Origin: Candidatus Latescibacterota bacterium
Lineage (GTDB): Bacteria > Latescibacterota > UBA2968 > UBA8231
NCBI GenBank assembly: GCA_965205655.1
Contig: CBDBIJ010000040.1
Location: 1-27,379, forward strand
DNA length: 27,379 bases
Direction: 5' to 3'
In this document: one piece after another, positions 1 through 21,804 of the stretch
Layout of the letters: every line of letters begins with the position of its first letter
Numbering within the stretch: position 1 is the first letter of the stretch
Translations under genes and position numbers: made by a program
Notes under the pieces: model-generated
Seen by the model: only the letters and a program-made list of their open reading frames with translations
The model's database searches: none
What the model was told of the DNA's origin: nothing

Positions 1-807
1 CCCGGTATACTCGTACCGTTGAATGTGTTCGTGAACGAGCACCGGTTGTACCTGTCATCTGTCGCCTTCGCAATCTGCGTCGGATTCGCACTGTTTCTCG
101 TAGTCAGGGAAAGCGGCAAGGTTGGCGCGGTCTGCGTGTTCCTGCTGCTGATCACCTTGGGCGCTCTTTCCCAACAACGATCGGGAGTGTGGGAGAATGA
201 GGAGCGTCTGTGGGCGGATGCCTTGTCAAAGGGACCGATGATGCCGCGGCCTCACATCTACATGGGCGATTTTTACGCCAGGTCGAAGGATGCCGAGCGA
301 GCTTTGGAGGAGTACCGGATCGCCCTGAGCATCTATCCGGCAGCACTGACTCCACTGGACAGGGTTGTCGCTTACAACAACATGGGGGCCGCTCATCTGT
401 CGATGGGGAATTTCGCCGAGGCCATTGAATTGTATGGGAGAGCTCTGCAGATCGATTCTACCTATGCCAAATCCAGGGAGGCGCTCGAGGGACTCCTCGC
501 GATACAGGCGAAAGCGCGAAATCCGGATGCTGTGCGCCTGCGCAAACGAGGATTGGCGTTGATGCTCGCCGGGGATCTGCGCAATGCCGTGGTCGCTTTT
601 TCTGAGTCACTTGAACTGGAAGTGGCCGAAGAGACCTTGATGTCACTCGCACTGGCCTACGAGCGAATGGAGGAGTGGAGCAAAGCTGTCAGTACGCTTC
701 GGGTGCTCAGAATCGCCAGTAAGAATCCGGACATGGAGGAAACGGCGGCGTCAAAGATTCGCCGGATCGACGCCCTTTTGCGCTCCAGGTCGAGTAGGCG
801 GGGTTAG
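1..807 (+). CDS. TMTC-like membrane glycosyltransferase + TPR protein, copy 1 (5'-truncated by window edge)
   Basis: Frame is open from base 1 (PGILVPLNVFVNEHRLYL). Contains the last TM helices, QRSGVW...LWADALSKGP and TPRs (AYNNMGAAHLSMGNFAEAIELYGRALQID). The same motifs recur in the eight downstream paralogues. Confidence 0.85.
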   Translation, partial: PGILVPLNVFVNEHRLYLSSVAFAICVGFALFLVVRESGKVGAVCVFLLLITLGALSQQRSGVWENEERLWADALSKGPMMPRPHIYMGDFYARSKDAERALEEYRIALSIYPAALTPLDRVVAYNNMGAAHLSMGNFAEAIELYGRALQIDSTYAKSREALEGLLAIQAKARNPDAVRLRKRGLALMLAGDLRNAVVAFSESLELEVAEETLMSLALAYERMEEWSKAVSTLRVLRIASKNPDMEETAASKIRRIDALLRSRSSRRG

Positions 808-812
808 GGAGC

Positions 813-2213
813 ATGGGTCCATCGTCGGCGAGGGCAACAGCGCTCGTTTTCTGCATCGTCGGACTCTCGTTGTTCTGGAATGCTCGGAACAACCCTTTCC
901 AGTACGACGATCATCACTCAATCGAGTACAATCCCCACATCCGGTCACTGACGAACCTTCCCCAGTTCTTCGTGGACCCGCAGACATTCTCCAGCCGAGA
1001 GGGCGGCCGCATGTACCGGCCTTTTCTGTTGTCATCGTACGCGCTGAACTACTCGCTGCACGGTCAGGAGGTCAGATGGTACAGAATCGGCAATGTGCTG
1101 CTCCACATCGCATGCTCGCTGCTCGTGTGGTTTTTGACGCGCGCGCTGTTCGGGCGACAGGTCCTCTCCTGGCTAGCTGGCGGGTTGTTCCTCGTACACC
1201 CGGCCCACAGCGAGCTCATAAATTACATAAGCAGTCGATCCGATCTGATGGTCACCCTGTTTTGCACCGGTGGCGTGGCGTTGTTCCTTCGCCACCGAGT
1301 CGTCCGTGAACGATTCGTTCGCGAGCGCTACTCAATCGGATGGACCGTCAACGCGGCGTTCGCCGCCGGCCTTCTGACGAAGTCTGTGGCGATGGTTCTG
1401 CCCGTCCTTTTGTATGTATGGGAATCGTCGACCGTCGGCGGAGCGCGTCTTCAAGCGATTCTTCGACGTTATTGGACGATGGGGCCGATTGCGATTACCT
1501 ATCTCGGCGTTGTCTGGTTCAACGGCTTCATCGAGGGCTCGCTCGCCAAGTCTCCGCGGGGGTTCGACCTTCAGCTGTGGACACAGCTAAAGGCCCTGGT
1601 GTACTACCTGTTGGTCTTCGTCACGCCAGTCAACCTGAATGTCGAACACCAGTTCTCGGTGTCCGCAAGTCCTTGGATGACTCCGCTGCTGGCGGCAGCC
1701 TTCATCGTCTCGCTCGCGATCGTGGCCCTCAAATGCCGGGCGCCGGCAGCAGCGCTGTGCGGAGCGTGGTTCATAGTCGGTCTGCTGCCGGCTTCAGTGG
1801 TGCCACTCAATATCCTGGTCAGCGAGCGCCGCGCTTACCTAGCCAGTGCGGGGTTGATGATGGCAGGCGCCTGGTGCTGGGAGATGTTCGCGAGACGCCG
1901 GCCGCGTTCAGCCAGGTCCAGTGCGGCAGTGCTCTGCCTTGTTATGGCGCTACTTACACTCGAGCGCAACGAAGTGTGGGCCACCGAAAAGAGCCTGTGG
2001 GCAGACGCCGTCAGCAAGGCGCCGCGCATGCACCGGCCGCGGGTGAATCTTGGGCTGGCCCACAAGCGCGGGGGCGAACTGGAAGCCGCACTCAAACAAG
2101 TGCAGGCCGGACTGACGCTGCGGCGTGATGACGCAACAGTATGGGTCGTTCTGGGGGACATCGAACAGGAGATGGGGAGAGCCGATCAGGAGCTAGGGTC
2201 AAATGGTGTGTAA
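813..2213 (+). CDS. TMTC-like GT-C + TPR protein, copy 2, N-terminal part (interrupted by IS256 after 2189)
   Basis: Motifs FQYDDHHSI, MYRPF, HPAHSELINYISSRSD, PLNILVSERRAYL, ERNEVW. Native sequence ends at 2189; the last 7 codons and the TAA come from the IS terminal repeat. Confidence 0.88.
   Translation: MGPSSARATALVFCIVGLSLFWNARNNPFQYDDHHSIEYNPHIRSLTNLPQFFVDPQTFSSREGGRMYRPFLLSSYALNYSLHGQEVRWYRIGNVLLHIACSLLVWFLTRALFGRQVLSWLAGGLFLVHPAHSELINYISSRSDLMVTLFCTGGVALFLRHRVVRERFVRERYSIGWTVNAAFAAGLLTKSVAMVLPVLLYVWESSTVGGARLQAILRRYWTMGPIAITYLGVVWFNGFIEGSLAKSPRGFDLQLWTQLKALVYYLLVFVTPVNLNVEHQFSVSASPWMTPLLAAAFIVSLAIVALKCRAPAAALCGAWFIVGLLPASVVPLNILVSERRAYLASAGLMMAGAWCWEMFARRRPRSARSSAAVLCLVMALLTLERNEVWATEKSLWADAVSKAPRMHRPRVNLGLAHKRGGELEAALKQVQAGLTLRRDDATVWVVLGDIEQEMGRADQELGSNGV
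2182..2189 (+). repeat. Target-site duplication CCGATCAG, left copy
   Basis: Identical 8-mer at 3566-3573 immediately outside the other IS end. Confidence 0.9.
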
Positions 2214-3565
2214 ACGACTCAGGCGGCGATCTTCTTCCTTTGCGCGATGGGTGATCCGTTTTCGTAGCACTCCCCGGCGTAGACGTCAGCCATGAGATGC
2301 GGTGCATTGAGTCGCCGGAATCGTTTCTCGGCCACCATCAGTACCCGCCAAATGAGGGCGGTGGCATTGGCCACCTTCCTGTATCGTTTGGCCGCATTGG
2401 TTCGCAACCGTACCGAAGCGAAGGGACTTTCGACGACGTTGGTGGTGCGCAGGTGTTGCCAGTGGGCCTCGGGAAAGTCGTAGAATGTCACCATACGGTC
2501 CCAATCGCGCTCAAGGATATCGACGGCGTCTGGACACTCGCGGCGAAACCGTTTGGCGAATTGATCGCGACGTTTCGTCGCTTCCTGACGGGTGGGCGCG
2601 TACGGGAGCTGTGTCAGCAGGTGCCGCCCTTCGACCTGCACGCGTTTTGGCAGCTTATCCAGCACGTTCAGGATGCGGTGATTCCAGCATCGCTGTTCAG
2701 CCGTCTCCGGCCAGACCTCTGCCAGGGCCGCCCAGATACCCAGGTGCCCATCCGCCACCAACAACTTCGCCACGCTCAGTCCGCGGTCACGCAGATCGCG
2801 CAGTACGCCCGCCCACGACTCTGTCGATTCGCGATAGCCCGGGACAATCGTCAGGACTTCTTTGCGCCCATCGCTCATCGCGCCGATGACCACCAGGAGA
2901 GCGGCTTTTTGTTTCTCAAGACCGGCTTTGACGTAGATCCCGTCCGCCCAGGCGTAGACGAGCTCGCGGTCATCCAGTCGTCGGCTGCGCCAGGCGTTGT
3001 ATTCGACGATCCACTTCTCACGCAAACGAGCGATCGAGGACGCCGACAAAGGCGCTCCCTTGCCCAGCAGGCCGCGCAGCGCCAGCTCGAAGTCGCCCTG
3101 AGACAAACCGTGCAGGTAAAGCTCTGGCAGCAGCTGACCTGTTTCTTGGGTGCGCCGGGCGAACAGCGGCAGTACCGCACTCTCAAATCGCTCTTCCAGA
3201 CCCCGCACCCGAGGGCGTTTCACCTCGATCGTGCCCGAGGTCAAGGACAGTCGCCGCCGCTTCCCGTACCCATTGCGGTAGCCGCCGGCTGCGTCCAACG
3301 GTGCCTGTCGCTCGTACCGTGACCGTCCCAGCGCATGGGTGACTTCTTCATCCAGAACCGACTGCATCAGCGACTGAATCTGCGAGCGTGTCCACTCTTC
3401 CAGCGTTTCGAACGTGGGCATGGACATTTCCGTCGTGCTCGGCTTAGGTTGTGCCATGGCGATTCTCCTCTTCCTGCCGGGATAGCCCCGGCGTTTGTGA
3501 TGGCTAATTACAAAGGAAGGGTAGGATCGCCGTCTGTCTATTTCCACACCTTCTGATTATAGCTC
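2190..3565 (-). mobile_element. IS256-family insertion sequence, complete, 1376 bp
   Basis: Imperfect 25-bp terminal inverted repeats: GAGCTAGGGTCAAATGGTGTGTAAA (2190-2214) vs reverse complement of 3541-3565, GAGCTATAATCAGAAGGTGTGGAAA (19/25 identical). Flanked by an 8-bp direct repeat CCGATCAG (2182-2189 and 3566-3573). One transposase ORF fills the element. Confidence 0.95.
2219..3457 (-). CDS. IS256-family (mutator-type) DDE transposase, ~412 aa
   Basis: Motifs GYRNGYGKR, WADGIY, LLVVIG...GRKEVL, SWAGVLRDLRDRGL, ADGHLG, QRCWNH, RTTNVVES. Start set at ATG 3457, preceded by GAGGAG on the minus strand; the ORF-track start at 3547 lies in the terminal repeat. Confidence 0.93.
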   Translation of the reverse strand: MAQPKPSTTEMSMPTFETLEEWTRSQIQSLMQSVLDEEVTHALGRSRYERQAPLDAAGGYRNGYGKRRRLSLTSGTIEVKRPRVRGLEERFESAVLPLFARRTQETGQLLPELYLHGLSQGDFELALRGLLGKGAPLSASSIARLREKWIVEYNAWRSRRLDDRELVYAWADGIYVKAGLEKQKAALLVVIGAMSDGRKEVLTIVPGYRESTESWAGVLRDLRDRGLSVAKLLVADGHLGIWAALAEVWPETAEQRCWNHRILNVLDKLPKRVQVEGRHLLTQLPYAPTRQEATKRRDQFAKRFRRECPDAVDILERDWDRMVTFYDFPEAHWQHLRTTNVVESPFASVRLRTNAAKRYRKVANATALIWRVLMVAEKRFRRLNAPHLMADVYAGECYENGSPIAQRKKIAA

Positions 3566-3573
3566 CCGATCAG
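3566..3573 (+). repeat. Target-site duplication CCGATCAG, right copy
   Basis: Identical to 2182-2189. Confidence 0.9.
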
Positions 3574-4014
3574 GCTGAAGATGCCTACAGAGAGGCTCTC
3601 AAATTCAACCCCAATCTCGCCGGCGTTTATCACAATCTCGGCAACATCGCTCTATCGCACGGCGAGGTGGACGAGGCGATTGGACACTACCGGACTGCCC
3701 TGCGGAGCAACCGGTTCTTTGCCGAGTCACACAATAACCTGGGGCAGGCATATGAGCTCCACGGCGATTGGATGCGCGCCTTGGGCGAGTACGAGACAGC
3801 GGTGCGAGATTCTATCTACTGGACGAACACGGGTGATCCGGTGGGAGGCGCATGGTTGAACCTCGCCCGCGCTGCCGAGCGTCTGAATAGACGCGAGCTG
3901 GCCCGAGAAGCTTTTGCCGAAGCCTATGCCTCCCTGCAATCCGAGCCTGACCACCAGCGACATGCCCGAACAGCGCTGGAGGGCGTCGTCCGGCTGGGCG
4001 GATCGATTGAATGA
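3574..4014 (+). pseudogene. C-terminal TPR fragment of TMTC-like copy 2
   Basis: Joining 2189 to 3574 gives an in-frame TPR: MGRADQ|AEDAYREALKFNPNLAGVYHNLGNIALSHGEVDEAIGHYRTAL. This restores a ~605-aa protein ending at TGA 4014. Confidence 0.92.
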
Positions 4015-5192
4015 AAGTCTGCCTGATTACATGTCACTATCCGCCGATGGCGAGAGCACTCAGGCGCTACGAGTACGCCCGCTGTCTTGCCGACGGCGGA
4101 TGCGATGTTGAAGTCGTCACTCATGGCAACATTTCGCATGCTTTGGGCGCCTACGAGGACGACCCGGAGCTCTCGGCCGAAGATCCAGATATCCGCGTGC
4201 ATCGTCCCAAGGCGATGCCGTGGCACCTGGCAGGGGATCTCATCTACCGCGCCGGCCTGTTACCCTGTCCCTATGCGAACTGGTATCGTCCGGCTGTGCG
4301 GGCCGCTCGCGACATCGTCGATTCAGCATCGGACGCTGTGGTCGGGATCTATCCGCCTCTGACGAATCTGCTCGCCGCGCACGCTGTCGCCGAGCGAACC
4401 GGAGCAAAGCTGGTCCTCGATTATCGCGATGAGTATCTGGGTCTCGCGACGGGGTTCAGGAAGCCGCTGGCGCGCAGGATTCACAAGAGACTCTTGAAAC
4501 GAGCAGATCTCGTTTCGGTGGCGACGCGAGCGATCGAACACGGCCTCGTCTCGCGTGACGGCTTCCCACCATCAAGAATTGCGCTGACCTCGAACGGCTA
4601 CTGGCACGAAGTCGAGGGGGCAACGGGCTATGCGCCTGCGAACAAGATGAGAATCGTTTACGCCGGCGCGATTTCCCAGATCCAGGGACTCGGCGTGTTG
4701 TGCGACGCATTGGGGATCTTGTGGAAAACGAGGCCGGAGACCGCGACCGATATCGAGTGCGCCATCTACGGCCCCGATAATTTCTACCTGAGACGCGTTC
4801 TGCAGCCGCGCCTTGGAAAAGGAGTCGAGTACGGGGGGTTTGTGCCGGCAAAAGAGGTTACCAACATGCTGCTGTCGGCCGATGTGTGTTTCCTATCGCT
4901 GGCTTCCGATGATTTTTCCTATGCGATTCCCAGCAAACTCTACGAATATATCGCCCACCTGCGTCCCATTCTGGGGGCGCTGCCGCAGGGGGCTGCCCGC
5001 GAGTTGATCGACGGGGAGGAATTCGGCCTGACTTCCGACTGCGGTCGAGAGGACGACCTGGCGCAACAAATTGTCGCCATGATGTCCGTCGACCGAAGAA
5101 TCGAGTTTCACCAAAATCTGATCAGAGGCAAGGCGAAATACGCGGGCAGACCGCACTTTCTCGCCCTTGCCAAGAGGATCCAGCAGCTGTGA
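4011..5192 (+). CDS. Glycosyltransferase, GT-B fold, family 4-like
   Basis: N-terminal KVCLITCHYPP...GCDVEVVT, LVLDYRDEY, RIVYAGAISQIQG and C-terminal YAIPSKLYEYIAHLRPILG are typical of GT4 enzymes. ATGA overlap with the upstream stop. Confidence 0.85.
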   Translation: MKVCLITCHYPPMARALRRYEYARCLADGGCDVEVVTHGNISHALGAYEDDPELSAEDPDIRVHRPKAMPWHLAGDLIYRAGLLPCPYANWYRPAVRAARDIVDSASDAVVGIYPPLTNLLAAHAVAERTGAKLVLDYRDEYLGLATGFRKPLARRIHKRLLKRADLVSVATRAIEHGLVSRDGFPPSRIALTSNGYWHEVEGATGYAPANKMRIVYAGAISQIQGLGVLCDALGILWKTRPETATDIECAIYGPDNFYLRRVLQPRLGKGVEYGGFVPAKEVTNMLLSADVCFLSLASDDFSYAIPSKLYEYIAHLRPILGALPQGAARELIDGEEFGLTSDCGREDDLAQQIVAMMSVDRRIEFHQNLIRGKAKYAGRPHFLALAKRIQQL

Positions 5193-7060
5193 GCGCGACC
5201 GACTTGCGGCCCCACCTCGGCCCACTGGCGCTGGTCGTGGTCATGGCGGTCGGAGCGTTTTGGAACTCTCTGGATAACGGATTTCATTTCGATGACGAGC
5301 ATTCGCTGACGGAGAATCCCCACATTCGCGACATCGGCAATGTGCCGCGTTTTTTCGCAGATCCGCAGATGTTTTCGCGAAACCCGGGAAGCGAGATGTA
5401 CCGCCCACTCGTGCTGACGAGCTACGCCTTCAATTATCAGCTGGGCAGGCTGCGGCCCAAAGGCTACCATGTAGCGAACCTGATCGCACACATCGCCGCT
5501 GCCGTGGGGCTATACGCGCTTCTGCAGGCGATGGGTAGTGGTGGGCTTTTCGCGACCGCCGGCGCGGTGATGCTCTCCGTACATCCCGTCGCCACAGAGC
5601 CGGTGAACTACATCAGCAGCAGGTCAGAGACGATGGCCGCCGTCTTGCTGCTGTTCAGTTTCGTCGCGTATGTGCGCGCTCGGGACGTTGGTGGGGTCGC
5701 TGTGGCAGTCTCGGCGATTTGTTTCCTCGCCGGTTTGCTGTGCAAACAAAGCGTCATCGTGCTCATCCCGCTACTGTTGCTCTACGAGCGGTTCTTGGTT
5801 CCGGAACGGAAGAGCGAATGGTGGCAATGGCAGTTGCCTCATTGGGCCATAGGTGCGCTGTACATACTACTCACGCGCGGGCTGATCTCCGAGGCTCTGA
5901 CCGAGCCTGTGAGACCCCTGCCTGTGCAGCTCGCGACCCAGGCCAAGGCAATGGTGTATTACGCAAAACTCCTGGTGATTCCGTATCCCCTCAATGTCGA
6001 GCATTCCTTTTCGGTCTCTGAGACGTGGCAGAGCATGACGTTGATAGCGAGTGTGGCTCTGGCGCTGTCTGGCGCCTATCTCATGTGGAGGGCCTACGCC
6101 CGCGGCATGAGGGTCCCGGCGTTCTGGCTGACGTGGATGACGCTGGCGCTCCTGCCGACGGCGATCGTCCCGCTCAACATGATCGTCAACGAGCGCCGCC
6201 TCTACCCCGTTTTGATAGGTTTCATCGGGTTGCTCTTGTGGATGGCGGCGCGCAGCGCCAGAGCCGGCCCCTTTTTTCTGGCCGCTTCTGTTGTGTTTGC
6301 GACGCTCACGGTACAGCGAAACCCCGTCTGGGCGACCGAGCTGACACTGTGGCGAGATGCCGCGTCCAAGGCCCCGGAAATGCCCCGCCCCCACCTGAGA
6401 CTCGGTGTTTGGCACCGCGGCAACGGCGAGCTGGATGCCGCGGAGGCGGCTTACAGGCGAACACTGGCGCTCGATCCGGGCAGTGCACCGGCGCTGAATA
6501 ATCTGGGCAACGTACTCAGTTTAAAAGGGGACCTCGCCGGTGCTGAGGAGGCGTATAACCGGTCCCTGCAGCTGTTGCCGAGCTACCCTGAGGCGCTCAT
6601 CAACTTAGCTGGACTGCTCAACAAGAGGGGGCAATTCGAGGCGGCGCTCCGCCTGTACCAGCAGGCGGAGCCCCTTGCCGCGAACAGACCGGAATTTCAC
6701 AACAACCGGGGGCTCTGCCACCTGGAGCTGGGGCAGTTTGCTGAGGCCGCGCGAGCCTTGCGAAGATCGATTTCTCTCGATCCGGACAACGCCTCGTCCC
6801 ATTATAACCTCGGGGGAGCGCTCGAGGGCCAACAGAGGCAGGGCGAGGCGGAGGCCGCCTACCGTCGCGCCTCGCGCCTGGACGCTGCTTTCGCGAAGCC
6901 GCACTTCAAACTCGCTCGGCTCTACGAACGGCAGGGCAGGGTGACGGCGAGTGTCGAAGCATACGAGATGTTTCTGAGTCTTTGGCACGGCGACGCGGAG
7001 GTCTCCGAGCGTCTCGGGAGTCGGGTGGACAGCCTCAGGCACAGGATGGCTGACCGTTGA
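5189..7060 (+). CDS. TMTC-like GT-C + TPR protein, copy 3 (623 aa)
   Basis: FHFDDEHSL, MYRPL, HPVATEPVNYISSRSE, PLNMIVNERRLYP, QRNPVW, then several TPRs. GTGA overlap start. Confidence 0.88.
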   Translation: MSATDLRPHLGPLALVVVMAVGAFWNSLDNGFHFDDEHSLTENPHIRDIGNVPRFFADPQMFSRNPGSEMYRPLVLTSYAFNYQLGRLRPKGYHVANLIAHIAAAVGLYALLQAMGSGGLFATAGAVMLSVHPVATEPVNYISSRSETMAAVLLLFSFVAYVRARDVGGVAVAVSAICFLAGLLCKQSVIVLIPLLLLYERFLVPERKSEWWQWQLPHWAIGALYILLTRGLISEALTEPVRPLPVQLATQAKAMVYYAKLLVIPYPLNVEHSFSVSETWQSMTLIASVALALSGAYLMWRAYARGMRVPAFWLTWMTLALLPTAIVPLNMIVNERRLYPVLIGFIGLLLWMAARSARAGPFFLAASVVFATLTVQRNPVWATELTLWRDAASKAPEMPRPHLRLGVWHRGNGELDAAEAAYRRTLALDPGSAPALNNLGNVLSLKGDLAGAEEAYNRSLQLLPSYPEALINLAGLLNKRGQFEAALRLYQQAEPLAANRPEFHNNRGLCHLELGQFAEAARALRRSISLDPDNASSHYNLGGALEGQQRQGEAEAAYRRASRLDAAFAKPHFKLARLYERQGRVTASVEAYEMFLSLWHGDAEVSERLGSRVDSLRHRMADR

Positions 7061-8940: not shown

Positions 8941-8977
8941 CGCCTCGCCGATCGGACAGGAACCAGCCTTGATAGTG

Positions 8978-11131: not shown

Positions 11132-12606
11132 GCTCCTGGAAGGAACTGGGCAGCCCCGTGGCGCTCATGGCCATCGTCGCCGCCCTGTCCGCCAACTCCG
11201 TCGGCGGCAGCTTTCACTACGACGATCTCCATTCCATTCTGAACAATCCCAACATTCGGGACCTCGCGAATGTCTCGGCTTTCTTCACCGACGCCAAGCA
11301 GTTCTCCGTCGATGTCGACAAGGCAATGTACCGCCCGCTTCTGCTCCTGACGTATGCTCTCAACTACTCCCTTGGGGAATACGATGTTACGGGATATCAC
11401 GTCGTCAACGTGTTTTTCCACGGAATCAGCGCCATTCTGGTGTGGAGCATCGCCGTCAGCCTCGGGTTCGAAAGACATGTGGCATTCCTTGTTGCGGCTC
11501 TCTTCGCCGCTCATCCGCTGGCAACGGAACCGGTCAACTACATCAGCAGCCGGTCCGAGTTGCTCGGGGCGGCTCTGTTCCTGGCTTCGTTCAGATGGTT
11601 CATAGCCGGGTCCGAATCAGCTCGGAAAGCGAGCGTGATCCTTTTCGCCCTCGGGCTGATGTCGAAGTCCGTCGTCGTCGTGCTACCAGTCATCCTGTGG
11701 CTGTGTCAGAAGTGGCTCCTCGACCAGAGGCCCACTGCCCGCATCCATCTGCCGTACTGGAGCGTAGTTGTCTGCTACCTTTCAATGCTGGCGTGGACGC
11801 GATTCCTTCAATCCTCAATAGCCGGTTCACCCCGCGCCCTCGACGTGCAGTTGTGGACGCAGGTCAAGGCGATGGCGTTGTATGCGAAGCTTCTGATCAT
11901 GCCTGTGGGTCTGAACGTGGAGCACCAGTTCTTCGAGGCTACCAATCCCTGGCAGGCGCCGGTGGCGCTGGGCCTGTGCCTGGTTGTCTCCACGTCCGCC
12001 CTGGGTTGGTGTGCGCTGCCGCGTCCAAGCCTTTTCTGGCTGTCCTGGATGGCGATCACTCTTGCTCCCGCTTCCATCACGCCTCTGAATGTGCTGATCA
12101 ACGAACACCGGCTGTACCTGCCGTTGGCAGGGTTCGCTCTGATGTGCGGCGGCCTGTTCTCGGGCCGGTCGCCGACTGAGCTCCCAGCCTTCCGCATGTT
12201 TGCACTCGGAGTCGTCTTCTTCGCCGGCCTGATGATTCAGCGCAACAGTGTCTGGCATGATGAGAAGACGTTGTGGGAGGATGCCGCAGCCAAGAGTCCG
12301 CTGATGGTGCGTCCGCAGGTTCATCTCGGCAACGCGCTACGCAGCCGAGGCCAGTTTGATGCGGCTGAGAGGGCCTACAGGCGCGCGATCGATCTCGAAC
12401 CTGCGCATCGGGCGGCCAACACGAATCTGGCGAATCTCTATCTCGAAGCTGGTCAGGGAACGAACGACGAGACCACCTCGCGACGGCTGTATGAATGGTC
12501 CGCAGAGCGATATGAAGAAGTTCTCGATACAGATCCGGCCTACAAGGAGGCCTTGAACAACCTCGGTAGCGTCTACGCTTTGCTGGGAAGAGATCGTGAG
12601 GCCTGA
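11128..12606 (+). CDS. TMTC-like GT-C + TPR protein, copy 6, N-terminal part (premature stop from a 1-nt frameshift)
   Basis: ATG 11128 with GGGGAGG RBS and ATGA overlap. FHYDDLHSI, MYRPL, HPLATEPVNYISSRSE, PLNVLINEHRLYLP, QRNSVW. Stops mid-TPR at GRDREA-TGA. Confidence 0.87.
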   Translation: MSSWKELGSPVALMAIVAALSANSVGGSFHYDDLHSILNNPNIRDLANVSAFFTDAKQFSVDVDKAMYRPLLLLTYALNYSLGEYDVTGYHVVNVFFHGISAILVWSIAVSLGFERHVAFLVAALFAAHPLATEPVNYISSRSELLGAALFLASFRWFIAGSESARKASVILFALGLMSKSVVVVLPVILWLCQKWLLDQRPTARIHLPYWSVVVCYLSMLAWTRFLQSSIAGSPRALDVQLWTQVKAMALYAKLLIMPVGLNVEHQFFEATNPWQAPVALGLCLVVSTSALGWCALPRPSLFWLSWMAITLAPASITPLNVLINEHRLYLPLAGFALMCGGLFSGRSPTELPAFRMFALGVVFFAGLMIQRNSVWHDEKTLWEDAAAKSPLMVRPQVHLGNALRSRGQFDAAERAYRRAIDLEPAHRAANTNLANLYLEAGQGTNDETTSRRLYEWSAERYEEVLDTDPAYKEALNNLGSVYALLGRDREA

Positions 12607-13063
12607 GCTGGCATACAGGCAGGCGATCGACCGAAACCCTCATTTCGCCGACCCCTACTTCAACCTCGGAGGTTTCTACTCTCAGAGACACCGATTGACG
12701 GAAGCGGTGGCGATGTACGAGCGCGGACTCGCATTGGAGAGGGATGCCGATGCCTACTTCGCTCTTGGAAACATTCACGCGAAGACGGAGCAGCTCCCGC
12801 AAGCGATTGCCGCCTATCGCGCCGCGTGGAAAACCGATGATAGCTCCGTGGCGTACGGCCGAAATCTCGCGGAAGTCCTGCTCGTGCACGGTGAGCGAGA
12901 GCTTGGGGCAGGAGATGGGGAAGCGGCGACGAGGTTGTGGCTGGAGGCCAGGGAGAGTCTCGAGAGGGTGATCGAACTCGACCCGGGAAACGAACACGCG
13001 AAGAAGAGACTGGCGCAGCTCGGCGAGCGGCTCCTCGATGCGGTAGGGGGAATCGGGCAATGA
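12596..13063 (+). pseudogene. C-terminal TPR part of TMTC-like copy 6 (+1 frame)
   Basis: Removing one base from GCCTGAG (12601-12607) gives GRDREAELAYRQAIDRNPHFADPYFNLG, a continuous TPR, and a ~644-aa protein whose stop overlaps the next ATG (13060). Confidence 0.8.
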
Positions 13064-15099
13064 AAGAAGTTGTGGCGTTCTTGGTTTCGCGCCCGCTTGC
13101 CTCAGCTGCACTCATAGCCGCGATGTGCGCCGTGCTCTACTCGAATTCCCTGAACAACGGGTTTCAGTACGACGACCGGCACTCCATCGTGGAGAATCCT
13201 CATATCAGAGATCTCGGCAATGTCGCCCGTTTTTTCAGCCACCCCGAGTACTTCTCCCGCGACCCGGACAAGGCAATGGTGCGCCCGGTCCTGTTGGCGA
13301 CCCTGGCTGCAAACTACGCCTGGAGCGGTTACGAGACCTATTCGTATCACTTCGTCAATATCATCCTCCACGGCCTGTGTGCCGTTTTGTCTTGGGCGAT
13401 ATTGCGACAGCTCGGCACCTCGCCCTGTCTGGCCCTGTTCGGCGGCCTCCTGTTCGCCGCCCACCCAATCTGCACTGAACCGGTGAACTACATCAGCGCG
13501 CGGTCCGAGTTGTTGGCGGCGGCTGCGATTTTCGGGAGCTTCTGGCTTTACGGTCTGGCGGCAGACTCCCTCCGGCAGAGTCGCGGGGGAGAGTGGCAGT
13601 TGCGCCTTGGCTCCGTGGCGTTGTTCGCTGTCGGCCTCGGGTGCAAATCGGTAGCCATCGTTCTGCCGCCGCTGCTGCTGTGCCGGGATTTCTCCCTGGG
13701 ACAGCTCGACCGTCATAGGTGGAAGCGCTACCTGCCGTACGGCTTGATTGCAGCTGCCTATCTCTTGTATATGAAGAGCTTTCTCCTCACGGCGCTCATC
13801 GACGCGCCGGTGCGATCGTCATATTCGCAATTGGCCACCCAGATCAAGGCGATTCCCTATTACTTCAAGATACTCATCATCCCCGCAGGCCTCAGCGTCT
13901 ATCACTCCTTCAGCACCGACACATTCGCCTCGTTCACTGTCGTAGCAAGTCTGGCAGCCCTCACATCCCTCCTTGTCTGGACGACGATGGCCGGGTGGGG
14001 GCAGCGCTACCGGCTACATCTCCTGGGACTGGGGTGGATGGCCATAACTCTCGCTCCGACCTTCGTTGTGCCTCTCAATGTGCTGGTCAACGAGCACCGG
14101 CTCTACCTGCCCCTGCTCGGGTTCGTTATCACGTTGGTGGGAGTTCCACGTCTGGAGTCGGTTCCCGGCATGCTGCGCGGCGCACCTGTTGCCATAATCC
14201 TTTTTGGCATACTCGTCCTGCTGCGAAATCCGGCATGGTCAACCGAGTGGACGCTCTGGAAGGACGTGTCCCGAAAGTCAGGCGGGGATGCCCTGCCGTA
14301 CGTGTACATGGCCAACTATGCGAAGGACGGCGGACAGCTGGAGAAGGCAGTCGGGCTTTTTGAAAAGGCGCTCGAGCGCGATTCGGGCAACATTGCCGCC
14401 CGCAACAATCTCGCCAATACCTACAGGCAGATGGGTGACTGGTCGATGGCGACAAGAGTCTTCGGCCGGATACTGGATGAGCAGCCGGCAAATTCGGATG
14501 TGCGGTACAATCTCGCACGGACATACCAGGCTGGAGGGGAACGAGACTTGGCGCGAACTCACTACCTGGCCGTCGATCCAACGAGCATTCACCATCATCT
14601 GGCGCTCAACAACGTGGGGACGTTGTACGAAAGAGAGGGTAGGCTGGACAGCGCCGTCTACTATTACCGAGCGGCTCTGGCGAGCAGCGCCAGCTCGCCG
14701 GACGGGCGGAGGAACCTCAGCCGAGTTCAGGCGCAGCTCACCGAGTCGATGGTGAAACTGCACGAGATGGGCGAGTTCGCCCAGGCCGAATCGGTGTGCC
14801 GCCAGTTGCTGCAGGACGATCCCGAGGACCGTGATGCCAGGTTCCTACTTGCTGTGACTCTGTATTATATGACCGAGTACGACGAGAGTATTGAAGAGAC
14901 TCTTCGGCTCGTCGAGTCCCATCCCGCTTTTGGCGAGGGTCTGCTTCAACTTGCGAACGTTATGGAGACAGCGGGCCGTCCAGTGGAAGCGAAGGAGGCG
15001 TACGAGCAGCTATTGCAGCGATCAGAGGACACCGATTTGCGCCGAGAAGTGCGGAAGCGAATGCGGAATCTGAGCCAGCGGATGGAGCGAGTGAATTGA
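13060..15099 (+). CDS. TMTC-like GT-C + TPR protein, copy 7 (~679 aa)
   Basis: ATGA overlap start at 13060. FQYDDRHSI, MVRP, HPICTEPVNYISARSE, PLNVLVNEHRLYLP, LRNPAW, TPR tail. Confidence 0.87.
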   Translation: MKEVVAFLVSRPLASAALIAAMCAVLYSNSLNNGFQYDDRHSIVENPHIRDLGNVARFFSHPEYFSRDPDKAMVRPVLLATLAANYAWSGYETYSYHFVNIILHGLCAVLSWAILRQLGTSPCLALFGGLLFAAHPICTEPVNYISARSELLAAAAIFGSFWLYGLAADSLRQSRGGEWQLRLGSVALFAVGLGCKSVAIVLPPLLLCRDFSLGQLDRHRWKRYLPYGLIAAAYLLYMKSFLLTALIDAPVRSSYSQLATQIKAIPYYFKILIIPAGLSVYHSFSTDTFASFTVVASLAALTSLLVWTTMAGWGQRYRLHLLGLGWMAITLAPTFVVPLNVLVNEHRLYLPLLGFVITLVGVPRLESVPGMLRGAPVAIILFGILVLLRNPAWSTEWTLWKDVSRKSGGDALPYVYMANYAKDGGQLEKAVGLFEKALERDSGNIAARNNLANTYRQMGDWSMATRVFGRILDEQPANSDVRYNLARTYQAGGERDLARTHYLAVDPTSIHHHLALNNVGTLYEREGRLDSAVYYYRAALASSASSPDGRRNLSRVQAQLTESMVKLHEMGEFAQAESVCRQLLQDDPEDRDARFLLAVTLYYMTEYDESIEETLRLVESHPAFGEGLLQLANVMETAGRPVEAKEAYEQLLQRSEDTDLRREVRKRMRNLSQRMERVN

Positions 15100-17036
15100 A
15101 GCATAGCTGGGTTGTGCTCCCCGTCCTCTGCTTTGGACTTTACTGGAATTCGCGTGACAACGGGTTTCACTACGATGACATCCATTCCATCGTCGACAAC
15201 ATACATATCAGACAACTGGCGAATATCCCCTCGTTCCTCGTAGAGCCCTCGATGTTCTCCGTAGATGCCGACAAGGCCATGTACCGGCCCACGCTGCTGG
15301 TGACTTATGCCATCAACTATGCGGCGGGCGAGGCGACCGATCCCCGGGATTTACGCGGCGGCGGGCTCGACGGCTTTACCTATCACCTGGGGAACATTCT
15401 CATTCATGGCCTCAACGCCTGTCTCGTCTGGTGGCTCGCCCGGTTGATTGGCGGCTGCCATGGGCCCGCCCTTGTCGCCGGACTCCTCTTTCTCGCTCAC
15501 CCGCTATGCGCCGAGCCCGTCAACTACATAAGCGCCCGCAGCGACAGTCTGGCAGCCCTGTTCTATCTGATGGGATTGTGCCTGTTCATCGGCGTCGCCG
15601 CACGCGGAGAGGAGGTTTGGCGGCGGTGTAGCTGGTTGGCGGCATTCGCCCTCGGGCTTCTGTGTAAGTCCACGGTCATAACACTTCCGCTCGTCGTGCT
15701 GCTCTACGACTATCTGCACTTGCGTGACTCCCGCAGGTCGTTTGGACGACGAGTGGTCGTGACTCATGTTCCCGCCTGGGTAATTGCTGCACTGTATTTG
15801 GTGACCATTTCGAGAAACGGTTTTCTTTCCGGCTCGCTCGCCAACCCCGTGCGGGATGGATGGACGCAGGCGCTCACGCAGATCAAGGCAGTGAGCTACT
15901 ATCTGCACAACCTTGTTGTTCCGACACATCTGGTCGTGGAGCCGCAGTTCTCGGAGCAGACCACCTTCTGGTCCGGCGTCGTCGTGCTCTCTGTGTGTCT
16001 CGCCCTTTCTGTTGGGCTCATCCTCTACTACCTCTGGATAAAGAAGAGTCGAACTTCGCTGTTCATCCTCCTCTGGCCTCTGATCTCCATGCTACCCGTG
16101 GTCGTCATGCCTTTGAATGTCTTCGTCAACGAGCGGCGCCTCTACCTGCCGTGTGCCGCCTTCTGCATCGGATTGGCCCTCGTGCTGAGCTCGAGAGGGC
16201 TGAGCCAGCTCAAGGTGAGCGGTTTCAGGGGTCGAACAATCGCTGCGGCGGCGCTGGGGATCGTATTCGCAGCGATCGTATTCGATCGAAACAAGGTCTG
16301 GTCCAGCGATTTCACACTCTGGCAGGATGCGGTTGCAAAGGCTCCGAAGATGCCACGCAACCATCTGTATTTGGGAAATGCATACAAGGATCTGGCGCAG
16401 AGCACGGCCGCAGTAGCTGCCGCGCGTCCGCATTGGCAAGCCGCCTCGCAATCCTATCGTCGGGTCATCGAGCTCGGGAGCGATGAGGAACTCTCCGTAC
16501 GCTCCCAGAACAACCTGGGCAGTGTCCAATTCATGCTCGGCAACTTCGAGGCTGCGGAGAAAGCCTACCGAGCTGCCCTGGCGAGTAATCCCTCTTACGT
16601 CGATGCGATAATCAACATGGGCAGCATCATTTTGATGAAAGCCCGCGGTGCCAAAGACGACGCTAAAGGCGCGAAGCTGCTCAGAGAGAGCATCAAGTAC
16701 TTCAAGCAAGCTCTGGAATCCCGGCCGAACAACGACGACGCCTGGGGCAACGTAGGCGTCGCCTACCACGATCTTGGCGACATCGACGAGGCGTTGAAGG
16801 CATATGAGAAGTCGCTCCACCTGAACCCGCAGAACGCACGGGCGTGGCGCAACCGGGGTAGCATCTATCACCTGATGGCGGACGAGGCCATCGCCTCCGG
16901 CGGCACTCCGGTGGAGGAGTTGAAAAAAGCCCGGTACAGTTTTCGCAAGGCTGTTCGGTTCCGGCCCTCCTACACTGAGGCGCTACTGGGACTGAAGCAG
17001 GTGGAAGAGAAGCTGCAGCGAATCGCGGAAAAGTGA
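15096..17036 (+). CDS. TMTC-like GT-C + TPR protein, copy 8 (646 aa)
   Basis: TTGA overlap start. FHYDDIHSI, MYRPT, HPLCAEPVNYISARSD, PLNVFVNERRLYLP, DRNKVW, TPR tail. Confidence 0.88.
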   Translation: MKHSWVVLPVLCFGLYWNSRDNGFHYDDIHSIVDNIHIRQLANIPSFLVEPSMFSVDADKAMYRPTLLVTYAINYAAGEATDPRDLRGGGLDGFTYHLGNILIHGLNACLVWWLARLIGGCHGPALVAGLLFLAHPLCAEPVNYISARSDSLAALFYLMGLCLFIGVAARGEEVWRRCSWLAAFALGLLCKSTVITLPLVVLLYDYLHLRDSRRSFGRRVVVTHVPAWVIAALYLVTISRNGFLSGSLANPVRDGWTQALTQIKAVSYYLHNLVVPTHLVVEPQFSEQTTFWSGVVVLSVCLALSVGLILYYLWIKKSRTSLFILLWPLISMLPVVVMPLNVFVNERRLYLPCAAFCIGLALVLSSRGLSQLKVSGFRGRTIAAAALGIVFAAIVFDRNKVWSSDFTLWQDAVAKAPKMPRNHLYLGNAYKDLAQSTAAVAAARPHWQAASQSYRRVIELGSDEELSVRSQNNLGSVQFMLGNFEAAEKAYRAALASNPSYVDAIINMGSIILMKARGAKDDAKGAKLLRESIKYFKQALESRPNNDDAWGNVGVAYHDLGDIDEALKAYEKSLHLNPQNARAWRNRGSIYHLMADEAIASGGTPVEELKKARYSFRKAVRFRPSYTEALLGLKQVEEKLQRIAEK

Positions 17037-17037
17037 G

Positions 17038-17592
17038 ATGCTCGGACTGGAGCGAAGGAGATTCGAGGATTGGGTGGGCGAGGTGCTGCTGAGGGAAAGT
17101 CCCGAATCAGGGCTGTCGATCGATGTGGGATGCGGCTGCGGCAGAGCGAACAAATTCTTCAAGAACGTGGTGATCGGCATGGACATCGCAGGGAATGTCC
17201 GGCCTCCTGTGGTGGGATCAGCGGACGCACTGCCCTTTGGCGACCGCACTTTTCAGTTCGCCGCCTCTTTCCAGAGCTATCTGTTCGTGAACGATATCGA
17301 GGGTGCCATCGTCGAACTGAATCGAGTGCTCGAGCTCGATGCGATTGCCGTCATATCGCTGTCGAAATGGTACTACCTGAAACGCGAGAGGCGGACCCAT
17401 TCCGGCACTGTTCAAGTGCATTCTGAGACAAGGTGGCGGAAGCTTTTCAACAGTGGCGGATTTCGAGTCGAAGAGATCTCCATTCCAGGACGCTATACGG
17501 GCAGGCTGTCGTTCGCCGCGAACGCCTTGAGCAGATATCTGGGCCCGTACAACCTCTACAAGCTTCGCAAGGTGAGTAGTCCGCCGGCGTAG
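17038..17592 (+). CDS. Class I SAM-dependent methyltransferase (Methyltransf_11-like), 184 aa
   Basis: Motif I SIDVGCGCG, GSADALPFGDRTFQ, and AIVELNRVL. Starts 1 nt after the upstream stop. Confidence 0.82.
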   Translation: MLGLERRRFEDWVGEVLLRESPESGLSIDVGCGCGRANKFFKNVVIGMDIAGNVRPPVVGSADALPFGDRTFQFAASFQSYLFVNDIEGAIVELNRVLELDAIAVISLSKWYYLKRERRTHSGTVQVHSETRWRKLFNSGGFRVEEISIPGRYTGRLSFAANALSRYLGPYNLYKLRKVSSPPA

Positions 17593-17617
17593 TGGAGGAT
17601 TGCCAACAGCGCCAGGC

Positions 17618-19855
17618 ATGGGCATTATGATTCTCGTCCGCGAAGCGTTCTCCAAGGTGCCCGGCTGGGTGCTCCCGCCGGCCTTGTTTCTCGTCGTCGG
17701 TCTCGTCTTTTCAAATTCCCTGGACTCCTCCTTCCACTACGACGACGCTCACTCAATTGTCGACAATCCACATATCAGATCTCTACGGAACGTCGGCGAA
17801 TTCTTTTTCGATTCAGCCACTTTTTCGAATGAGCCGTCCATGGCGATGTACCGGCCTCTCCTGCAGAGCACGTATGCCATCAACTACGCACTGGGTGGGT
17901 ATGGCGCCTACGGATACCACCTCTTCAACGTCGTGCTGCACGCCCTGTGTGCCTGCGCCGTATACGCAGTCCTGCGGGTCGTTTCTGGATCGGCAGTGGT
18001 TGGGCTCGCCGGAGGTGCCCTGTTCGGTCTGCATCCCGTTCACGCGCAGGCTGTGAACTACATCAGCAGTCGTTCGGAGTTGCTGTGCAGCCTAGGAGTG
18101 CTGTTTTCGTTTTGCCTGATCGCCAGCAGGCGCAGTCTGGCCGCCGCCGGAGGCGCGTACTGGGCGGCCTTGATGTCCAAGTCAACCGCGGTGAGCCTCG
18201 TTCCCATTCTGGCGTTGTTTCAGCGGTCGAATCGCCCGTCGCCCGGGTGGAAGCGCCTCGTGCCGTTCGCATGCCTCTCCATCGCCTACATCGGCATCAT
18301 TTCCCTGGACGGCTTTCTGCCGAAATCCCTCGCCCAGGATGTGCGTCCCTACGCCACTCAGATCTACACCCAACTCACGGCGATCCCCTACTATCTGAAG
18401 CTGCTCGCCATGCCGGTATCGCTGGCCGTCGAGCACCAGTTCCACGAGGCGAACGGACTGTGGAATGGCGTTGTGCTTTCCAGTTTAGGCCTGGTGTCGT
18501 CGATGGTCTTCGGTGTGGCTCGATTTGCCCGTCACCAAACATGGTTGGGCTTCGGCATAGGTTGGTTCCTCGCCGGGCTCGGGTTGACTTTCCTCGTTCC
18601 GTTGAACGTGCTCGTGAGCGAACATCGCCTCTATCTGCCCTCCGTAGGGCTCCTGTTCGTGCTTGCCGGAGCGCTACAGCCGCGTCGCGAGATAAGGACG
18701 ATGTCGGAGCCTGTCCGGGCTGAAACCCGGCGACGCCCTGTCCTCATCTGGCCAGCATTCTGTGGCGTTGGCCTGCTGTTCGCTATTTTGACTCTTCAGC
18801 GCAACCGCGTCTGGCAGGACGAGCTCACCCTTTGGCAGGACGCCGTTTCCAAAGCCCCCAACATGTTCCGCGCACAAAGCAACCTGGCGCTCGCCCTGCA
18901 CAACGCGGGCGATCTACAGAGCGCGCGGGTCGCCTACGAGCGCGCCCTGAGCCTGAATCCGAATTACAGCAAGACGTGGAACAATGCGGGAACTCTGTAT
19001 GAATCTCTTGGAATGGACGATCGCGCCGAAGCTGCGTTTCTGAAAGCGCTGAAGCTTCGTCCGGATCTGTCGGGAACGCTCAACAATCTCGGGAAGTTTC
19101 ACCTGCATAGCGGCAGAGTTGCTCAGGCTGAACAATATCTTCGCCGGGCCCTCGCGGTGAATCCGCAGAATGTGGAAGCGCGGGTGAATATCGGCCGGCT
19201 GTGGCAGCGGACCGGCTCGATTTCGGCGGCAGAGGCGGAGTACGGTGAGGCGCTCCGCATAGACCCCGTCTTTGCGCCTGCCTACAACAATCTCGGACTG
19301 CTGTACGCGGAGACTGGTCGACCCGGCGAGGCACTCGAAGCGCTGCGTCGGGCTGTGGAGCTGGCTCCCGATGATCGCTCCGCACATATCAACCTGCGAC
19401 TCGAAGAGCTGTCACAGTCCGGAACCCCGCCGGCGCAAGCGTATCGGGAAGTCCTTACGAGCTTTCCAGGCGAAACCGAGTTGTGGCTGGCTCTGGCGGA
19501 ACTCAACATGCGGCAGCGGCAGTGGCAAGATGCGGTGATGGCCTATGAGGAGGTCTTGACTCGACACCCTCGGCAGCAGGGGCTGATGCGCCATCTGGCG
19601 GACGCCTACCGAGGGGCCGGACAACTGGAGAAGTCGATCGCGGCATACGAGGCAGCGGTGTCCGAGGATCAGGGGAATGCCGCGATCCGCAACAACCTGG
19701 CCTCAGCCTACGCCGCACACGGAATGGTCGACGAAGCAATCCTGGCCTGTCGACGCGCCCTCGACCTCGACCCGGACGACGAACGAGCCTTGGGCAATCT
19801 CCGCAAGCTGCTGGTCAGGCGCTCGCAACAATCCTCGGAATTTTCTCGTAAGTGA
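17618..19855 (+). CDS. TMTC-like GT-C + TPR protein, copy 9 (~745 aa, long TPR tail)
   Basis: FHYDDAHSI, MYRPL, HPVHAQAVNYISSRSE, PLNVLVSEHRLYLPS, QRNRVW, ~350-aa TPR tail. Start uncertain (17600 TTG, 17618 or 17627 ATG). Confidence 0.87.
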   Translation: MGIMILVREAFSKVPGWVLPPALFLVVGLVFSNSLDSSFHYDDAHSIVDNPHIRSLRNVGEFFFDSATFSNEPSMAMYRPLLQSTYAINYALGGYGAYGYHLFNVVLHALCACAVYAVLRVVSGSAVVGLAGGALFGLHPVHAQAVNYISSRSELLCSLGVLFSFCLIASRRSLAAAGGAYWAALMSKSTAVSLVPILALFQRSNRPSPGWKRLVPFACLSIAYIGIISLDGFLPKSLAQDVRPYATQIYTQLTAIPYYLKLLAMPVSLAVEHQFHEANGLWNGVVLSSLGLVSSMVFGVARFARHQTWLGFGIGWFLAGLGLTFLVPLNVLVSEHRLYLPSVGLLFVLAGALQPRREIRTMSEPVRAETRRRPVLIWPAFCGVGLLFAILTLQRNRVWQDELTLWQDAVSKAPNMFRAQSNLALALHNAGDLQSARVAYERALSLNPNYSKTWNNAGTLYESLGMDDRAEAAFLKALKLRPDLSGTLNNLGKFHLHSGRVAQAEQYLRRALAVNPQNVEARVNIGRLWQRTGSISAAEAEYGEALRIDPVFAPAYNNLGLLYAETGRPGEALEALRRAVELAPDDRSAHINLRLEELSQSGTPPAQAYREVLTSFPGETELWLALAELNMRQRQWQDAVMAYEEVLTRHPRQQGLMRHLADAYRGAGQLEKSIAAYEAAVSEDQGNAAIRNNLASAYAAHGMVDEAILACRRALDLDPDDERALGNLRKLLVRRSQQSSEFSRK

Positions 19856-21797: not shown

Positions 21798-21804
21798 TCT
21801 GGCG

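Follow-up and report, generated by a model that had tools for sequence, protein, structure and literature searches.

Nine tandem paralogues and their shared motifs

We analysed a window of 27,379 nucleotides (the whole stretch of DNA examined), which is the entire contig C40 of a metagenome-assembled genome of a Candidatus Latescibacterota bacterium (4.0 Mb, 84% complete); relatives of this source genome have been deposited as Candidatus Latescibacterota and, in some cases, as Gemmatimonadota. Using open reading frame (ORF) lists and alignment, we found that positions 1-19855 carry nine co-oriented paralogues on the + strand, each encoding a glycosyltransferase C (GT-C) membrane domain followed by a tetratricopeptide repeat (TPR) tail (Table 1). 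Both the number of genes and their sizes (~600-750 aa) agree with a preliminary description of this DNA. Six copies are intact; of the other three, copy 1 is truncated where the contig ends, copy 2 is interrupted by an insertion sequence (IS) and copy 6 is frameshifted. Their full-length identity to the first sequence of the alignment is 31-38%, rising to 38-42% over the membrane domain (the eight N-terminal domains available, hereafter N-domains). Adjacent genes share six 4-nt start/stop overlaps (4011/4014, 5189/5192, 7057/7060, 11128/11131, 13060/13063 and 15096/15099), and the array therefore reads as a single translationally coupled operon. The likely start of copy 6 is the ATG at 11128, which overlaps the stop of copy 5, and that of copy 7 is the ATG at 13060, which overlaps the stop of the copy 6 tail. 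The array extends beyond base 1, as had been suspected: the window ends with its contig, and a contig from another public sequencing run (X2) continues upstream. The IS, the frameshift in copy 6, and the embedded GT4 and methyltransferase genes had gone unmentioned in the preliminary description.

Table 1. Features of the window, in order along the + strand (TM, transmembrane; SAM, S-adenosylmethionine)
Feature	Position	Strand	Remarks
Copy 1	1..807	+	C-terminal part only: last TM helices, PLN..NEHRLY, RS.VW and TPR tail; truncated by contig end
Copy 2, N-terminal part	813..2213	+	GT-C domain and first TPR; PMT 33.5 bits; interrupted by the IS after 2189/2190
IS256/Mutator-family IS	2190..3565	-	Transposase ORF 2219-3547; Pfam E 1.8e-56; ~1,375 bp
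Copy 2, TPR tail	3575..4014	+	Resumes at ~3575 after the IS
GT4 glycosyltransferase	4011..5192	+	GT-B fold, cytoplasmic; 4-nt start/stop overlap on either side
Copy 3	5189..7060	+	623 aa, intact
Copy 4	7057..8940	+	627 aa, intact; chosen for the structure model
Copy 5	8903..11131	+	742 aa as listed (real start maybe later); ~10 TPR-type hairpins
Copy 6	11059..13063	+	ORF 11059-12606; TPR tail in the +1 frame, 12557-13063
Copy 7	12937..15099	+	720 aa as listed; 679 aa from the likely start ATG 13060
Copy 8	15096..17036	+	646 aa, intact
Small SAM-dependent methyltransferase (Methyltransf_11)	17038..17592	+	184 aa, between copies 8 and 9
Copy 9	17600..19855	+	751 aa, intact; final array gene, lepA next
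lepA	19998-21797	+	Downstream neighbour
Signal peptidase I, lepB	21805-22566	+	Downstream neighbour
HemW	to 23804	+	Downstream neighbour
Homoserine kinase, thrB	23764-24702	+	Downstream neighbour
Wza-type polysaccharide export protein	to 26384	+	Downstream neighbour
Wzz-type chain-length determinant	to contig end (27379)	+	Downstream neighbour

All motifs named in the preliminary description are present. F-H/Q-Y/F-DD-x-HS, M-Y/V-RP and HP-x3-E/Q-x2-NYIS-S/A-RS-E/D occur in each of the eight copies having an N-terminus, while PLN-x2-V/I-N/S-E-H/R-R-x-Y and a TPR ending are common to all nine; the RN-x-VW-type motif takes the form RN-x-V/A-W in eight copies and RS-G-VW in copy 1. The eight N-domains share 55 invariant columns, among them D31-D32, R68-P69, H128-P129, N136-Y137-I138-S139, R141-S142, K181, E331, R333 and Y335. 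D31-D32 is also invariant in 42/42 aligned homologues.

Library searches recognised these proteins sparingly. The Pfam models PMT and PMT_2 scored above cut-off in two of the eight N-domains (copy 2, PMT, 33.5 bits; copy 5, PMT_2, 30.3 bits), and copy 4 reached 25.7 bits on PMT_2, just under the 26.1 cut-off; five N-domains matched no Pfam glycosyltransferase model. The MIR domain was absent among the Pfam matches of all copies, DUF2723 (the Pfam family of TMEM260) matched no array copy, and NCBIfam returned only TPR families, all below cut-off. A profile of the eight N-domains gave 0 matches to PDB sequences at E<=10. The ESM Atlas yielded bacterial clusters only, labelled PMT_2 or TPR and never DUF1736, and held no structure for an array protein. 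Searches with a full-length profile and, in Foldseek, with the full model were uninformative, TPR proteins swamping both. NCBI names the homologues 'tetratricopeptide repeat protein', in line with the earlier expectation that routine annotation would see only the repeats; JGI departs from it by naming some of them 'protein O-mannosyl-transferase'.

Predicted fold, topology and relation to TMTC

We used AlphaFold2 to model copy 4 from a 42-sequence alignment. The model (mean predicted local distance difference test score 94.1, predicted template modelling score 0.89) has 11 long helices before residue 382, followed by TPR hairpins. Comparison with 48,161 PDB representatives in a VIA-align wide search matched residues 1-414 to AglB (3waj; Z 22.5, root mean square deviation 4.2, 325 aligned), ArnT (5f15; Z 21.2, 335 aligned), Pmt1/2 (6p2r, chain B; Z 19.8, 334 aligned), STT3B (6s7t; Z 19.5), Pmt4 (9e61; Z 19.5) and PglB (5ogl; Z 17.5), and the membrane domain to ALG12 (Z 20.7); the tail aligned with YrrB, PilW, PilF, MamA and related TPR proteins. 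A poorer model of the N-domain only (pLDDT 71.9) gave no Foldseek match at E<=1e-3; its 30 top Foldseek rows were nonetheless all GT-C enzymes or oligosaccharyltransferase complexes, led by ArnT (E 1.7e-3, TMq 0.51). The GT-C match was seen only in the VIA-align wide search and with this N-domain-only model. As modelled, the membrane domain has a GT-C fold, in keeping with the preliminary description.

In the copy 4 model, D31-D32 sit 12 residues past TM1. Taking the model helices as TM segments, we counted lysine plus arginine residues per loop and summed them over the eight copies. They make up 94/406 residues (23%) in cytoplasm-assigned loops vs 95/1,351 (7%) in periplasm-assigned loops, and this distribution therefore places the N-terminus inside, and the DD loop and TPR tail outside. 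The loops predicted to be periplasmic are the DD loop, the HP..E..NYISSRSE loop, the long TM7-TM8 loop and the PLN..NE.R.Y loop, together with the TPR tail. With 11 TM helices and this charge bias, both the DD loop and the TPRs are predicted to lie where the preliminary description had put them. A crude Kyte-Doolittle scan, which gave 6-9 TM segments per copy, was dropped in favour of the model helices. The same topology (11 TM, cytoplasmic N-terminus, TPR beyond the membrane) is described for TMTC proteins in the available text of Eisenhaber et al. 2021 (PMC7801869), and has been measured in part for TfpW, according to the accessible part of a preprint (bioRxiv 10.1101/2020.04.19.049825).

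The preliminary description had gone further and matched the copies to the eukaryotic TMTC proteins and to DUF1736. We compared them with six of the seven TMTC motifs given in the available text of PMC7801869, which include SHKSYRP (M2), RxD (M3), KE(T/Q)xxT with a metal-binding Glu (M4) and ERxxY (M7). Four of the six have a clear counterpart: the DD pair (M1), (A)M-Y/V-RP (M2, YRP core only), RS-E/D (M3, R-x-D/E) and E-H/R-R-x-Y (M7, E..R..Y). Invariant in the eight copies are the DD of M1, the R-P of M2, the R of M3 and the E..R..Y of M7. M5 (DW) had no certain counterpart in the array copies.

Searches with PF08409 (TMTC_DUF1736; cut-off 27 bits) linked the copies to DUF1736 through sister proteins. 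The best site over the whole source genome is sub-threshold (16 bits, contig C105). Among 31 related genomes, 12 contain PF08409 above cut-off, as single loci outside the listed array coordinates. Two of these loci (G011:C4 and G012:C78) fall within matches of copy 4 (E 3e-36 and 5e-31; 32-35% identity over the whole domain), and sub-cut-off sites in G008, G002 and G018 fall within comparable copy 4 matches (31-32% identity). A protein of G006 scored 42 bits on PF08409. Aligned to this protein with hhalign, the eight N-domains gave a probability of 98.8% (E 1.4e-16, 375 columns), with the two DD motifs in register and the DUF1736 segment opposite the TM7-TM8 loop. The G006 protein retains the K-E of M4.

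Judged from these sequence comparisons, the relation to TMTC is real but indirect. Full-length homology to DUF1736-positive sister proteins and four of six motifs bear out the earlier match in part; it fails at the level of the family model, with PF08409 silent in the N-domains and the glutamate of the KE motif lost. We therefore class the copies as a divergent bacterial offshoot of the TMTC-like GT-C superfamily rather than as members of GT105/PF08409. The literature searched only touches on such bacterial relatives, with a mention of 'homologues even among prokaryotes' in the available text of PMC7801869.

Conserved order, disrupted copies and neighbouring genes

The source genome encodes ~13 paralogues, comprising the nine described here, three on contig C105 and one on contig C104. 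The lone C104 gene (G000:C104, L050:5141-8398 (-)) encodes a protein of ~1,086-1,147 aa with a much longer TPR tail and a ~270-residue N-terminal extension that has no Pfam match; a second Mutator-family transposase lies beside it (G000:C104 ~10948-12000, L050). The three C105 genes stand between two ORFs for PALP (a pyridoxal-phosphate enzyme), of which one is partial (L049 3304-4245 and 9349-9984), suggesting either a duplication or that a region of PALP genes received the paralogue block by insertion.

The copy 4 domain matches 30/31 related genomes, with 0 to 28 matches per genome, and tandem runs of seven to eleven occur among the matches listed in G004, G005, G008, G011, G012, G013 and G014. 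Two arrays from other genera were compared with the window: that of G008, which is a complete chromosome, and that of G013. A quick IQ-TREE maximum-likelihood tree, with Shimodaira-Hasegawa-like approximate likelihood ratio test (SH-aLRT) support only, was built from 29/35 N-domain rows; six rows covering <300 of 401 profile positions, including copy 1 and the split last G013 copy, were dropped. Each of the eight window copies in the tree has a partner in G008, and seven of them have one in G013 as well (SH-aLRT 86-100). These orthologues are collinear, in the same order along the DNA in the window, G008 and G013. Between orthologues, the TPR tails match over their entire length at 35-48% identity and agree in length in 11/11 pairs; paralogous tails gave only partial, out-of-register alignments at 22-39% (15 pairs). 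On this tree and these alignments, the nine genes are old, individually retained paralogues with private tails, the pattern expected if each has its own partner.

Relatives are widespread. In a survey of the phylum, 129 of the 151 genomes sampled contain one or more relatives at E<=1e-20 (at most 12 candidates were scored per genome, and the counts are not copy numbers). The sample included 63 genomes of the family to which the source genome belongs; in genus g16, 0/3 genomes gave a match. Against 1.84 billion cluster representatives, the profile found 110,881 at E<=1e-3 and 26,170 at E<=1e-30.

We also compared the array with Logan contigs from four public runs in three studies. Copies of the direct repeat CCGATCAG(G), an 8-9-bp target duplication, border the IS in copy 2 on either side (2182-2190 and 3566-3574). 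Contigs of runs X2 (20,453 bp), X3 (13,383 bp) and X5 show the empty site, joining base 2182 directly to 3567, and with the IS and one copy of the repeat taken out, 813-2182 and the tail are in frame and encode ~605 aa. Depth over the IS region is 70-740 vs ~4 on the flanks in the four metagenome runs, which indicates that the IS is multicopy. In copy 6, a frameshift at ~12604 leads to a stop at 12606; the base at 12604 is missing in the X2 and X3 contigs, whose copy 6 frames are fused. Run X1 behaves otherwise: its contigs break at the IS and keep the extra base at 12604. Every word sampled from the searched stretch occurs in X1, and the window may have been assembled from this sample. Further single-contig indels at ~4x depth occur at 5687, 8967, 13230 and 15500, and because these arise at the same low depth, the copy 6 frameshift may be an assembly error. 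As both breaks are absent from the contigs of other runs, those in copies 2 and 6 are strain-specific, or, for the frameshift, possibly an error of assembly, and intact versions of all internal copies exist in near-identical populations. No RNA runs are listed among the 10 public runs holding the stretch. The G008 array likewise contains an IS1595-type transposase, with a DDE_Tnp_1_4 transposase upstream (L046:4496-5500 (+) and L046:15139-16140 (-)), and such arrays seem to be frequent IS targets.

The surroundings are conserved in part. The GT4 gene occupies the identical array position in the window, G008 and G013; the methyltransferase at 17038-17592 has no counterpart at that position in the G008 and G013 arrays. 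This 184-aa protein weakly matches the DVU_1556 family, and could methylate the transferred sugar or be unrelated. The order lepA-lepB-HemW-ThrB-Wza-Wzz follows the array in the window and in G008. In G013 the array is followed by lepA-HemW-ThrB-Wza to the end of the stretch examined, where lepB was not scanned for (regions compared: window 19998-27379; L045:1-10735; L047:1-5397). The best NCBIfam match of the Wza-type protein is the XrtA/PEP-CTERM exopolysaccharide exporter, at 101 bits vs a cut-off of 180; exosortase (PF09721) has two marginal matches only, both to short ORFs (28.9 and 26.1 bits). The region upstream of the array encodes, in G008, a DegT aminotransferase, a B12-radical SAM enzyme and additional GT4 proteins and methyltransferases; in G013 it carries glycosyltransferase, methyltransferase, PGA_cap, AsnB-like and polysaccharide deacetylase genes.

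Donor supply was sought among the 17 GT2 matches in the genome. Two of these resemble ArnC/GtrB in architecture and end in a pair of TM helices: one on contig C23 (E 9e-54 against ArnC) and one on C126 (E 2e-33 against AglJ). By sequence, these ArnC/GtrB-like proteins are possible donor supply candidates. The C23 GT2 gene (L069:5342-6289 +) follows, after 4 nt, a gene for a 667-aa Wzy_C (O-antigen ligase/PglL-type)+TPR protein (L069:3334-5337 +), a second, different pairing of a membrane enzyme and TPRs in the same genome.

Candidate function and comparison with known systems

We propose that the nine paralogues are inner-membrane GT-C+TPR proteins whose DD catalytic loop and TPR arm would face the periplasm. 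Each would transfer a sugar from a polyprenyl-phosphate carrier, and the TPR arm of each would pick a distinct set of periplasmic or surface protein acceptors. Taken as a whole, the reading of nine periplasm-facing transferases with a polyprenyl-phosphate-sugar donor and distinct, TPR-chosen protein acceptors is finely balanced, about equally apt to prove right or wrong. Best supported within it is that the copies are candidate GT-C transferases using polyprenyl-phosphate sugar, to which the fold, the invariant loop residues and the predicted topology all point. On the acceptor, analogy makes us favour proteins: TMTC, TMEM260 and TfpW, the characterised GT-Cs that have a TPR arm, all modify proteins and offer precedents for the choice of protein acceptors by such an arm. 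A bolder version, domain-specific protein O-glycosylation in bacteria, is tentative. Here, nine anciently diverged TMTC-type transferases with private TPR arms would each serve their own class of secreted or surface proteins. This would be a prokaryotic parallel to the way in which POMT, TMTC and TMEM260 divide the work in the animal endoplasmic reticulum, and perhaps its evolutionary origin.

Several results weigh against this proposal. PF08409 matches 0/8 N-domains, even at E<=10, and, relative to the motif in the available text of PMC7801869, the metal-binding Glu of M4 is replaced by S/Q/A in 8/8 copies, with the Lys (K181) kept. The topology rests on a model and the positive-inside rule. 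Neither a synthase for polyprenyl-phosphate sugars nor a flippase is encoded in the window, a search of the 84%-complete genome for GtrA (PF04138) was negative, and the ArnC/GtrB-like GT2 genes both lie away from the array, the one on C23 pairing instead with the Wzy_C+TPR gene. The neighbours (Wza/Wzz, the embedded GT4, upstream DegT in G008, and PGA_cap, AsnB-like and deacetylase genes in G013) point to glycan work. The cadherin domain (PF00028) was likewise not found in the 84%-complete genome, which has only one TIG-domain protein; the specific cadherin analogy drawn in the preliminary description is therefore unsupported. Finally, the literature searched, with subscription journals outside its coverage, shows no activity, donor or acceptor for bacterial members.

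Given the conserved glycan-type neighbourhood, a polysaccharide acceptor stays a serious rival, if one with well under an even prospect. The paralogues would then be periplasmic post-polymerisation modifiers of an exopolysaccharide, capsule or glycolipid, each adding a different side-chain sugar or linkage in the manner of GtrC/GT136 three-component systems, ArnT or the Emb/Aft arabinosyltransferases, with TPR arms docking on the polymer or on Wza/Wzz machinery. The TPRs of BcsC, PgaA and AlgK dock onto polymer or export machinery. Wza/Wzz genes lie four housekeeping genes downstream of the array in the window and G008, G013 keeps the same order to the Wza-type gene, a GT4 gene is embedded at one array position in all three genomes, sugar-related genes stand upstream in G008 and G013, and ArnT is among the best structural matches. 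Periplasmic GT-C enzymes that decorate polysaccharides are, moreover, well documented in the available text of PMC11127046. Those enzymes, however, bear carbohydrate-binding modules there rather than TPRs, and the characterised TPR-armed GT-Cs (TMTC, TMEM260, TfpW) all modify proteins in the portions of the literature available. The rest of the locus also fits a glycan acceptor less well: lepA, lepB, hemW and thrB stand between the array and Wza/Wzz, no donor synthase or flippase is adjacent, and nine conserved modifiers of one polymer would be without precedent.

Two further explanations set aside the idea of nine separate specificities. The paralogues might cooperate, as hetero-oligomers in the style of Pmt1-Pmt2 or in the sequential building of one extracytoplasmic oligosaccharide, and so form one pathway. 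The six 4-nt overlaps agree with this, tight translational coupling favouring equal dosage, as do the presence of the Pmt1-Pmt2 heterodimer (6p2r) among the structural matches, the full set kept in the same order in three genera, and the proposal, in the available part of the TfpW preprint, that TfpW is both polymerase and transferase for D-arabinofuranose chains. Copy numbers nevertheless vary widely among related genomes (0 to 28 matches), and two copies are broken in this strain with intact forms in other samples; both facts fit modular, separable functions better than an obligate complex, and we consider cooperation improbable. Less probable still is that the proteins are not glycosyltransferases but GT-C-shaped membrane scaffolds or transporters whose TPR arms organise envelope assembly. 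In its favour, the Glu of the TMTC KE motif is lost, and Pfam glycosyltransferase models pass in only 2/8 N-domains. Yet the loops that make up the GT-C active site are exactly where the 55 invariant columns fall, among them DD, YRP, the RS(E/D) arginine, K181 and E-x-R-x-Y, and this conservation, which holds across 38-42% identical paralogues and 42 homologues, is not expected of a scaffold.

The bacterial relatives are among the largest unstudied families of membrane enzymes (110,881 cluster representatives at E<=1e-3), and the locus offers a natural experiment, with nine ordered paralogues older than the split of three genera, conserved private tails, and natural knock-outs of two copies beside intact alleles. 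If the acceptors are proteins, bacteria would use paralogue-encoded acceptor specificity for O-glycosylation, giving an entry to the origin of the eukaryotic pathway; if they are glycans, this would be an unusually elaborate periplasmic decoration system. Under either outcome, function would become assignable to tens of thousands of genes labelled 'TPR protein'.

These proteins resemble several known systems in part. Like Pmt/POMT (GT39), they have a GT-C fold (Pmt1/2 Z 19.8, Pmt4 Z 19.5) and a loop 1 acidic pair. The PMT/PMT_2 models pass in 2/8 N-domains and fall just short in a third. Unlike Pmt/POMT, which carry a MIR domain in a large loop and a C-terminal TM bundle, they have no MIR, 11 TM and a TPR tail instead. 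ArnT (GT83) and STT3/AglB/PglB (GT66) are the best structural matches of the membrane domain but show no sequence-level match, and they differ in having other C-terminal periplasmic domains and lipid A or Asn acceptors. The Gtr system (GtrA/GtrB/GtrC) and GT136 of Citrobacter youngae, as described in the accessible text of PMC11127046, likewise use a periplasmic GT-C with a polyprenyl-phosphate monosaccharide, from a locus near polysaccharide export genes; the array differs in its lack of an adjacent synthase or flippase, in a TPR arm rather than a carbohydrate-binding module, and in nine GT-Cs vs one. A streptococcal case of GT-C O-glycosylation appears in the available part of PMC12041528; a Synechococcus 'Ogt' paper was set aside as irrelevant to the array, since it concerns a GT41 enzyme.

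Closer in build is TMEM260, the O-mannosyltransferase of IPT domains, with an 11-TM GT-C module and a luminal TPR-containing C-terminal region, for which the accessible text of PMC10214176 notes 'distant homologs in bacteria'. It belongs to Pfam family DUF2723, however, and the source genome has only one TIG/IPT-domain protein.

TMTC1-4 (GT105), O-mannosyltransferases of cadherins and protocadherins in the endoplasmic reticulum, share with the array 11 TM, a cytoplasmic N-terminus, a TPR domain on the far side of the membrane and several paralogues per genome. Each eukaryotic TMTC paralogue serves particular protein domains, and defects lead to brain malformation and deafness; to our knowledge, TMTC-type enzymes are known only from eukaryotes. 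As far as the available account of their motifs goes, the two also share DD in outer loop 1, a later YRP, R-x-D/E in loop 2, Lys in loop 3 and E..R..Y after TM9. Unlike TMTC1-4, the array consists of nine tandem, translationally coupled bacterial genes, its KE Glu is lost, PF08409 is silent, no cadherin was found, and the donor would be a bacterial polyprenyl phosphate sugar.

The nearest bacterial analogue is TfpW, the pilin D-arabinofuranosyl transferase of Pseudomonas aeruginosa. The accessible part of its preprint (bioRxiv 10.1101/2020.04.19.049825) describes 11 predicted TM, DDx in periplasmic loop 1, a large periplasmic C-terminal TPR domain, an ArnT-like model and a protein acceptor. 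In the literature searched, as far as available, it is the sole characterised bacterial enzyme of this build, a likeness by architecture and not by sequence comparison. Whereas tfpW is a single gene directly downstream of pilA, the array comprises nine paralogues, with no pilin gene in the window. The earlier statement that no characterised bacterial locus of this kind is known thus needs qualifying: none was found beyond this analogue, but TfpW, on the accessible text, is a characterised bacterial GT-C with a periplasmic TPR domain. The kind of enzyme is already known; the conserved, ordered array of nine paralogues is an undescribed variant of it, and one that is not unique to this genome.

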